Shown here: positions 6,001-9,000 of the stretch, in pieces | Layout of the letters: each line of letters starts with the position of its first letter | How positions within the stretch are numbered: the stretch's first letter is position 1 | Assembly: GCA_018061255.1 (NCBI GenBank) | Contig: JAGOUN010000002.1 | Span: 3,048-67,047, forward strand | DNA length: 64,000 nucleotides | Direction of reading: 5' to 3' | Origin: Gammaproteobacteria bacterium | GTDB lineage: Bacteria; Pseudomonadota; Gammaproteobacteria; JAGOUN01 | Made by a program: the position numbers

Positions 6001-9000
6001 TAAAACCCTTTTTTGTGCTCTAATGCTTACAAGCATGTAAGAAATAAAATATGCTCCTTTCGTCGATGTCTGCCAATTTCTGTTGATTTCCCTCCCGGAT
6101 TGGCATAGGATTCGAATAAAATTTTTCTGTGTCTTTAAAAAGCACATCGTTTAAGAGGTAAAAAAATCATGGCTTCAGATCAGGCAGTAACACGCCGCAT
6201 GGCTTCAAAGAAGCCAGTAACACTCCGCTGGAATCCCGCTCTCACAGAAGAAGTAAACCCCTCTTTCAAGTTGAGTAAAATTCACGAGCACTATTCTGAC
6301 GCCACTCGCAGTCAATTCACTTACAACCGGCGCAAAAAAGCCCATGAAGACGATTTATTGACTCCATTAGCTAGAAACTTAAAAGATGATGATGCCTATC
6401 AACAGTTTTGTGATGAGCTGAATGATTGTTACGACACTGATATGCTGCTCATGATTTGCAACAAGTTTAGCGGGAAAATAGCCGATCAAGTCCATTATAA
6501 GGAATATCTTTTTGGCAAACTAGCCTCTTGGTCAAATCAAAGCCCTCAAGTCTGTAATTATATTATCAATTTGCTTTCGCCTAAACAGGACACTAACCAC
6601 ACTCAAGGTGACGCAACGAATACAACGCATAAAAATAATAAAAAGGAGGCGCTTAAAAAAGGTCAACAAACTTTAACAGCGACACTTAGCGAACGTGAAA
6701 AAAATTTTTTTAAGCAATTAGAGGCTGAATTAGACGCTGAAAAAAAACTTTTTTTAAACGCCCCCCCCCCAAGACGCGCACCTAGGAGAGAAGCGACTCA
6801 ATCAAAGGCTCAAACTAGCCCGCATGCTAATATTCCTTCAGTCACTTACGATGACGAAATTTTAGATTTTTTGGCTCGCATGCAAAGATCTTCGGGAAGA
6901 AACTTTACGCGACATCAAGAAGACATTGCGCAAAATCAACAAGACTCCAGTTCATTGATAGAGAAGAGTAGTATTAGAACAACTGCAGAAAAAATTGACA
7001 AAGCTATTAGCGCCATTGATCTTTTTCTATGGGACAGCCTGAATCGAGAGCAGAAGTTTATTCAAAAAGTTATTAGCGCTTTGAAAAAGCAACCAGGCGA
7101 AACACAAATCACTCTAAGAGCTGGCGCACATAAGCGCACAACCTTTACATTTAATCGAAATCAGATATTAGTACTGATTCGCGCTAACCCATCACTTTGC
7201 GCTGAATTTAAAAAAGCATTAGCACCGAAGCCGAGTCTTTTTTCATTAGGACAAACAACGTTAGCAACATTATTTAACGCTGATGCTGATGCTCATAGTT
7301 TATTTGCTGATAACAACGATAATTTTCTAACATCTGCAAAAATATTACTGCCCAATTTATTCGTGGCTGAAAATAAACCAAGTCCTGATATCCAACAGCC
7401 CCCACCTCGTCAAGCCAGCAATAATCCTGCTGACACAAACAGACTTACAGTGGCGACAACGACCGAGGTAGTTTCGGGAAGTTTGAGCATCCAACCCACT
7501 GCAGCTTCTTTAGAAGCTCCATCAATTCTTAGTCCCCTCACTGACTTAAGCGAACATGCGACTAACAGTTCCGCACCGCTTTATCTACCTTTACCTTCAT
7601 CACTGCTTTTAATCGCAAATCACCCTTTTAACGCAGATAAATCCGTCGTCGACAATTCTCAACAAGAAAACACCGCCAGTGTTGTTGACCATGAACCTGA
7701 AGAAGAAACAGCCAATCAAGATAGTGCATTGGATGACCAACCCACTACCCAATCCGTTGCTCTCTTGAACACACCAAGTGAAGCGCTTGTCTCTGCTTCG
7801 CAGCATAGACCAAAAACCTTGGATATTGCAGGCGTAATCACTTCAAACCTAAAAGCGTTAACAGTTTTTTCTGCTCTACAAACCCTTACCAATCAATTCA
7901 CACGCTCATTACCACGGGTTTTTTCGAGCTTTAAACTCAATGATTTCCGATTCAGAACAGCACCTCTATGCAGCACACTCAAACTTGAAAATGACCCCGC
8001 TCTTGCTTTGGAAAATTCAAGTCAATCAGTTGCAGCCGATCCAGGATCTCAATTAATTACTGACGCAGTTACAAGTGCGAAAAATTTTGGCATTGACGAA
8101 GACGGACTTACAGTGACAACAACGACCGAGGCAGTTAACGAAATTACGATTCCTATCGTTAGCCAAGCTAACAATCCCGAAGTCGATAAGCCTCCATATC
8201 CGCTTTTAATCGCAAATTTCCCTTTTAACGTAGATGAATCCGTCGTCGCCAATTCTCAACAAGAAGAAACAGCTAATCAAGACAGTCAATTGGATGATCA
8301 ACCCGCTACCCAATCCGATGCTCGCTTGAACACACCAAGTGAAGCGCTTGTCTCTTTCAGAACAGCACCTCTAGACCACACACTCAAACTTGAAAATGAC
8401 CCGACTCTTGTGGAAAATTCAAGTCAATCAGTTGCAGCCGATCCAGAGTCTCAATCAATTACTGGATCCGCTCCTCTTACAGCAGTTGCTGCTGCAGTGC
8501 TTGACGCACCTCTTAATATTCAAGCGACGATGGACAGTTTTAATAATACTTCAAACGAAAAAGGCTATGATGATCGCTCGGAAAGCACTTCTCATCATGA
8601 CGAAACTTTTGATGATGCCTTTGTTGACGCAGCAAATTTAGATGAAAGCGATGATGAAGATGAGTCGTCTTCTCAACAGGGTTATGATGAATTGTATGAG
8701 GCAGCTGATTTAGATGAAAGCGATGATGAAGATGAGTCGTCTTCTCAACAGGGTTATGATGAATTGTATGATGCAGCTGATTTAGACAAAAGTGATGATG
8801 ACAGTCCGAAGAAGCCCTCATTAAGCTCGTTGCGGTTTTATCCGCCAGCTAAAGAAAAAATTAGCCAGGATGAAAATGAAGGCTCCGCACACTTACAAAA
8901 CCTCGGCATAACCGCCAACATGTGTTAATAGAGCATAAAGAATAATAATGGCCTAAATATTAATTTATTAAAAACAGAAAATAACAAAAAAGTGAGGGTA

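Follow-up and report, generated by a model that had tools for sequence, protein, structure and literature searches.

The 64,000-nt stretch analysed here (hereafter the window; positions 3,048 to 67,047 of contig JAGOUN010000002.1, assembly GCA_018061255.1, from a gammaproteobacterium of the GTDB lineage JAGOUN01) contains, adjoining the conserved cluster cdsA-uppS-frr-pyrH-tsf-rpsB / map, a gene for a 919-aa protein (NCBI MBP9725921.1, KBD83_00440). Within this gene lies a run of ten cytosines (C10), which a preliminary description of the sequence had proposed as a stochastic ON/OFF switch of a candidate effector. The features on which the analysis turns are the following (window coordinates throughout).

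6169-8928, + strand: open reading frame (ORF) of 919 codons, with a helical N-terminal domain of ~400 aa followed by a ~520-aa acidic, repeat-rich tail predicted to be disordered
6696-6739, + strand: slippage-type short duplications, namely A7T7 at 6698-6711 and the 12-nt tandem AATTAGAGGCTG/AATTAGACGCTG at 6716-6739
6724-6783 (approximate), + strand: insertion LDAEKKLFLNAPPPRRAPRR, 60 nt or 20 codons, residues 186-205 (alignment A2)
6740-6747 and 6749-6755, + strand: A8 and T7 runs, separated by a single C
6761-6770, + strand: C10 homopolymer
2875-2883, - strand: G9 tract serving as control, within pyrH (UMP kinase, ORF 2347-3069), read CGC GGG GGG GGG (R-G-G-G)

C10, the longest G/C run of the window, is read as GCC CCC CCC CCA and encodes A198-P199-P200-P201. 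The A8 and T7 runs upstream of it, with their intervening C, are translated in frame as E-K-K-L-F-L, and all three homopolymers fall inside the 919-codon ORF. The local sequence reads GCTG AAAAAAAA C TTTTTTT AAAC G CCCCCCCCCC AAGACGCGC. The position of C10, its A8 and T7 neighbours and the in-frame APPP peptide given in the preliminary description agree with ours in every detail.

Only two G/C runs in the window exceed six nucleotides: C10 itself and the C9 at 2875-2883, which is the G9 of pyrH. A first-order Markov model predicts 0.007 C-runs of at least 10 and 0.03 of at least 9 in 64 kb, and the C10 run is thus far beyond chance expectation. Given the peptide and the strand-specific codon usage, the probability that APPP would be written as at least ten consecutive cytosines is ~0.007; the codons of the tract are rare ones (CCC 14-19%, GCC 15-20%). 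Comparison loci totalling 2.33 Mb contained no further G/C run of at least 9 apart from contig L161, which represents the same locus, and a C68 run at a contig end, bearing out the earlier remark that such tracts are rare. The C68 run (locus L037, 16153-16220) occupies the extreme end of a Thioalkalivibrio contig and almost certainly reflects an error of sequencing or assembly in the public entry.

When the length of the tract was changed in silico, C9 and C12 yielded products of 231 aa, and C8 and C11 products of 204-205 aa (205 aa for C11), in place of the 919 aa encoded by C10, while C7 and C13 kept the frame. A change of one unit would therefore switch the full-length product off, close to the truncation after about 200 residues that had been foreseen for gain or loss of one C. 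The tract lies 22% into the ORF, the shifted frames stop after 4 and 30 codons, and neither of them contains an alternative long ORF. Re-initiation at Met238 following truncation was considered and is unlikely, because no Shine-Dalgarno sequence precedes this codon. Phasome screens regard intragenic G/C tracts of at least 7 as potentially phase-variable (PMC6321876). C10 exceeds this cut-off, so that the earlier assertion that it is long enough for slippage holds, and it is a repeat of potentially hypermutable length within an ORF, as expected of a phase-variable locus mediated by simple sequence repeats (SSRs). In Campylobacter jejuni NCTC 11168 every tract of at least 8 varies in length; the same source cautions that mutability is graded and might not reach the level needed for true switching (PMC6321876).

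Length of the tract in two assemblies

A second assembly of the locus is provided by Logan for run SRR11088367, the only run in the data searched that contains the organism. Its contig L161 is identical to the window over 5067-7056, C10 included, so that no tract-length variant exists between the two assemblies. Both were probably built from the same reads; their agreement therefore excludes an assembler error and leaves platform bias or an error in multiples of three as the remaining sources of a miscount. A literature search on the run accession returned no match.

It might be argued that the true tract is shorter, longer or interrupted, since homopolymers are prone to error, the sequence comes from a metagenome-assembled genome (MAG), and the closest related MAG (L001, 4.9x) has several split genes, for example pyrH at an A9 run. 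Against this, blocks conserved in the protein family flank the tract on both sides in a single frame (FCxELNDCYDTDMLLxIC and EYLFAKLAxW upstream; REQKFIxKVIxALK and FxRNQLLVLIRSNPxLCAEFKKAL downstream), and the consensus length must therefore be right modulo 3; judging from these blocks, an assembly error of one or two nucleotides in either direction is unlikely. Furthermore, Logan gives not only the identical C10 but also the identical G9 of pyrH. ORFs of at least 150 aa tile the window almost without gaps, those tested against Pfam match over essentially the full domain length, and neither the tiling nor the Pfam matches reveal signs of systematic homopolymer errors. An artefact is thus very improbable, and the error hot spot that the preliminary description had offered as its alternative can largely be set aside for shifts of one or two bases. 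In L001 itself (isolate S5C1339, 4.9x), frr, pyrH (at the A9 run), tsf and rpsB are split or fused by apparent frameshifts over 6896-9814; this is probably low-coverage assembly error, illustrating how poorly homopolymers can be called, and the window is free of such damage.

A recent insertion and a control tract

The 919-aa protein matches no Pfam domain and no PDB fold at E ≤ 0.001. Word-indexed protein searches retrieved only the protein itself or distant homologues, a look-up of the exact product of the gene found no match, and the gene was not found in the GTDB species genomes and the JGI metagenomes scanned. In scans anchored on map, the nearest relative was L001 (83% Map identity), in which an unrelated 825-aa ORF on the opposite strand stands downstream of map in place of the 919-aa gene. 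No close orthologue was found in the databases searched, where the organism occurs in the above run alone. When 1.84 billion cluster representatives were searched exhaustively with HMMER, ten true homologues with 26-45% identity did emerge (P0002-P0009, P0011 and P0012); an eleventh match, P0010, is an unrelated repeat protein and was discarded. In all ten, the similarity is to the N-terminal ~400 residues of the query, in full or in part; their C-terminal tails are unrelated, acidic and rich in repeats.

The insertion LDAEKKLFLNAPPPRRAPRR that bears the tract is specific to the window protein, being missing from all eight aligned homologues. None of these has any counterpart of the tract, and no G/C run of at least 5 is present in the three homologue genes for which DNA is available. 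On the strength of this alignment, the tract is a lineage-specific novelty. Its likely origin can be read from the surrounding sequence: TGAAAAAAATTTTTTT at 6696-6711 recurs in diverged form as TGAAAAAAAACTTTTT at 6738, 42 nt further on, the copy spanning the A8 and T7 runs (6740-6755). Together with the A7T7 and the 12-nt tandem listed above, this indicates that the insertion is made of short local duplications. A 6-nt direct repeat, AGACGC, also flanks the tract; its copies are 40 nt apart and out of frame, and the repeat was judged a chance occurrence.

In an AlphaFold2 (AF2) model based on the family alignment, the N-terminal domain is mostly helical, with predicted local distance difference test (pLDDT) scores of 70-89, and everything beyond residue 399 is predicted to be disordered. 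The helix at 175-196 ends just ahead of A198 and is followed by coil at 197-227, with pLDDT below 50 at 203-224. The tract would thus open a predicted disordered loop, in which the in-frame gain or loss of a proline should be tolerated.

Duplications are also found elsewhere in the gene. At 6168-6228 a 30-nt tandem duplication of the ORF start (MASDQAVTRR / MASKKPVTLR) has created a second in-frame ATG codon at a distance of 30 nt. The N-termini of homologues align to the second copy, and the Shine-Dalgarno sequence AAGAGG (6153-6158) serves the first. The tail contains five dispersed repeat pairs between 7431 and 8801 (43-95 nt, 84-94% identity, spacing 402-663 nt), as well as a 72-nt unit repeated in tandem 2.5 times, which encodes DLDESDDEDESSSQQGYDELY. 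These internal duplications of the gene are recent.

The second long G/C run of the window provides a control. The pyrH gene that bears it is intact, and the same G9 is present in Logan contig L163, reached via a look-up of tsf; a look-up of the exact pyrH product had no match. This tract is also derived: at the same codons, 109 homologues carry G-runs of at most 6, and the closest relative reads CGT GGT AAT CAG. A G/C tract of hypermutable length is unusual in a normally essential gene. The essential character of pyrH means that its G9 cannot be a contingency switch, and it follows that in this genome a long G/C run alone is no evidence of an evolved switch. Both long runs have C on the + strand, and third codon positions are skewed in the same direction: genes on the + strand have 1124 C against 717 G, those on the - strand 2842 G against 1653 C. 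Together with misalignment mutagenesis, a strand-biased mutational pressure can therefore push both tracts in the direction seen, and weak purifying selection in a host-associated bacterium would fit the persistence of such runs.

Neighbouring genes and effector candidacy

Two further features bear on the possible function of the gene.

9006-10706, + strand: partner ORF of 566 aa, 77 nt downstream of the 919-codon ORF; the product starts MGSESSKS, which fits the N-myristoylation consensus
40195-58017, no strand assigned: Dot/Icm type IVB secretion genes recognised with Pfam (IcmH/DotU, IcmF, DotG-like, DotH/IcmK, DotI/IcmL, OmpA-type lipoprotein, DotL-like and DotM)

The Dot/Icm locus marks the uncultured organism as Legionellales- or Coxiellales-like, in agreement with the Legionellales, Berkiella and Coxiellaceae labels of some Map relatives. 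In three other genomes (L162 8835-12624, L164 6001-9467 and L166 6001-9675) a gene of the 919-aa family likewise has a homologue of the partner gene behind it, on the same strand in each case. The four neighbourhoods of this two-gene module, counting the one in the window (6169-10706), are unrelated. Members of the partner family are 549-614 aa long, and all four have MGxxxS/T and then Lys at the N-terminus, which is the consensus for N-myristoylation in eukaryotes; no Pfam domain was detected in either family of the module. A CaaX box (CTIS) is present at the C-terminus of homologues P0004 and P0009 of the 919-aa protein. The window protein itself ends in ANMC, which is not a CaaX box, after its long acidic tail. 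Prenylation by the host through a CaaX motif is known from Legionella effectors (PMC5506055, PMC13081727).

As far as sequence motifs can tell, the module thus looks like a pair of host-lipidated effectors. Because the window carries a Dot/Icm locus, it is reasonable to treat the 919-aa gene as a putative Dot/Icm effector; the orphan character of the family and the lipidation motifs of its homologues are likewise suggestive of the effector label given earlier. An early stop in the 919-codon ORF could in addition be polar on the partner gene at 9006-10706.

Other observations concern the secretion locus and the remainder of the window. The DotG-like protein bears SHOCT-like repeats. The longest A/T run of the window, an A10 at 41079-41088, lies within a core secretion gene, occupying codons 7-10 of the icmF ORF (from its predicted start) just past the stop of the overlapping icmH. 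Two paralogous ATPase genes with AAA_14 and DUF4143 domains are located at 13326-14564 and 60198-61523.

Origin and possible role of the tract

The account towards which we lean, with modest confidence, is that C10 is a slippage-prone by-product in a tolerant loop, which could switch the gene but did not evolve to do so. C10 would have arisen within a recent, lineage-specific, low-complexity insertion composed of short local duplications, and the run was probably lengthened by the C-ward synonymous bias of its strand together with misalignment mutagenesis. The insertion appears to form part of a disordered loop interrupting the conserved N-terminal domain encoded by an orphan, Dot/Icm-effector-like gene, where C7 and C13 alleles would simply lose or gain one proline. 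In this scheme, the C10 of the sampled consensus would be the intact ON form. Slipped-strand mispairing at C10 should raise the rate of C9 and C11 null alleles, whose products would lack half of the conserved domain and the entire C-terminal tail and which may lower expression of the partner gene by polarity. Such an elevated rate would make the tract a mutational hot spot able to act as an ON/OFF switch.

Several points weigh against regarding the tract as a mere by-product. Genes for host interaction are the usual class for phase variation. G/C runs of at least 9 number two in the 64 kb of the window versus none in 2.33 Mb of comparison loci, and the codon-usage probabilities are 0.003-0.007 per site for the two long runs; consequently, more than ordinary codon choice must create or maintain them. 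The G/C runs of the window also leave lengths of 7 and 8 unoccupied: there are three 6-nt runs, a single 9 and a single 10, which resembles the bimodal distribution in genomes that possess genuine contingency tracts. Finally, there may be real heterogeneity of C-length at the level of the reads. These points leave some room for selection for hypermutability in an effector gene.

In its full form, such selection would have produced a contingency locus, in which reversible stochastic ON/OFF switching of the effector is maintained and the partner may co-switch through polarity, varying the effector set among hosts. The length of the tract relative to the cut-off of 7 (PMC6321876), its place 22% into an ORF whose shifted frames both end within 4-30 codons, its rare codons and the lack of such tracts in the comparators are all compatible with this, and an obligate intracellular species, Chlamydia trachomatis, offers a precedent in the poly-G of its CT166 gene, where 9 is ON and 10 is OFF (PMC4514472). 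However, the single sample has C10 in both assemblies, and the tract is located far from the 5' end. Moreover, long tracts of a contingency system avoid essential genes and vary in length among homologues, whereas here the only other G/C run above 6 nt in the 64 kb examined is the pyrH G9, all eight aligned homologues are without the insertion, and the longest G/C run in the three homologue genes with DNA is below 5. The redundancy of Dot/Icm effectors likewise makes the advantage of switching a single one less obvious. Of the proposal of a stochastic switch, then, the prerequisites of length, frame and truncation stand, while the pyrH G9 and the tract-less homologues fall short of what an evolved switch would show. 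On balance, a non-adaptive by-product of slippage, persisting where purifying selection is weak, is better supported than an evolved contingency locus, which we hold to be unlikely but deserving of attention. It is quite doubtful, too, that the poly-C tract switches a two-gene effector module, with the partner silenced by polarity, as the first case of SSR-driven phase variation of Dot/Icm effectors.

The object of selection could alternatively be the PPPR peptide, as a ligand for proline recognition in the host or as a pause dependent on elongation factor P (EF-P), with the homopolymer incidental and effectively stable. The protein has two copies of PPPR (APPPRR, residues 198-203, and QPPPRQ, residues 411-416), PPP motifs stall ribosomes and need EF-P, P199-P200-P201 qualifies by sequence as a candidate three-proline stall motif, and the first copy would be exposed in the predicted disordered loop. 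Yet the motif is conserved in no homologue, APPPRRAPRR on inspection contains no canonical class I or II SH3 pattern, and the second PPPR is written in mixed codons, CCC CCA CCT CGT; the peptide therefore needs no homopolymer, and selection on it leaves C10 unexplained. This makes an explanation at the protein level improbable. The tract might also act as a recoding signal that yields two products through programmed ribosomal frameshifting or transcriptional slippage, as long homopolymers can cause RNA polymerase to slip; this is established for A/T runs of at least 9 in endosymbionts and insertion sequence (IS) elements. C/G runs, however, are poorer slippage substrates than A/T runs, the shifted frames end within 4 and 30 codons without opening into an alternative long ORF, the RNA around the tract is not stably folded (z = +1.42, with 192 of 200 shuffled sequences folding equally well or better), and no terminator-like element was found. 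Recoding is accordingly extremely improbable. A regulatory role of the tract region was also considered and rejected, as it contains no terminator and no excess of promoter-like sites.

Comparison with known systems helps to place the tract. A direct parallel is the cytotoxin gene CT166 of C. trachomatis, in which reads show both G9 (ON) and G10 (OFF) (PMC4514472): in both cases the coding sequence of a putative effector aimed at the host contains a homopolymer of 9-10 G/C, and a one-base change creates an OFF allele. The CT166 tract, however, occupies gene positions 29-37 and is seen as mixed G9/G10 in pile-ups of 130-470x (PMC4514472), whereas C10, a lineage-specific tract located at codon 198 of 919, is known here from assembled sequence. 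With the phasomes of Campylobacter, Helicobacter and Neisseria the window shares the expected mechanism, slipped-strand mispairing at an intragenic G/C run of at least 7 that shifts the frame (PMC6321876, PMC3315296). Their tracts are numerous, mainly found in genes for surface structures and restriction-modification, often near the N-terminus and variable in length among isolates (PMC6321876, PMC3315296), unlike the window, which shows two tracts only, one of them in pyrH. With L. pneumophila AnkB and other CaaX Dot/Icm effectors (PMC5506055, PMC13081727) the present case shares an organism that encodes Dot/Icm and, in two homologues of the 919-aa protein, a CaaX terminus, CTIS. AnkB does have a natural one-base frameshift allele, but this is a fixed allele and not a homopolymer switch, and the window protein, with its ANMC terminus, has no similarity to AnkB in sequence or fold.

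Endosymbionts offer a parallel of another kind: according to work attributed to Tamas et al. (2008), their genes with poly(A) tracts are reportedly rescued by transcriptional slippage. As in those genomes, where long homopolymers are said to persist in genes, core genes included, under weak purifying selection, the window carries a long run in a core gene, and the pyrH G9 fits this pattern. The endosymbiont tracts are A/T runs in very AT-rich reduced genomes, whereas those described here are G/C tracts at a GC content of 41%.

To our knowledge, effector variation of the SSR type has not been described for this order. If the switching capacity of the tract is real, members of one clone of a Dot/Icm organism could come to differ in effector repertoire by the mechanism used by Campylobacter or Neisseria. 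The presence of a long G/C run in pyrH as well calls for caution, in that tract length alone poorly predicts an evolved switch. The 919-aa gene itself is relevant to effector biology as a member of a small orphan family invariably accompanied by a second family with MGxxxS/T at the N-terminus.

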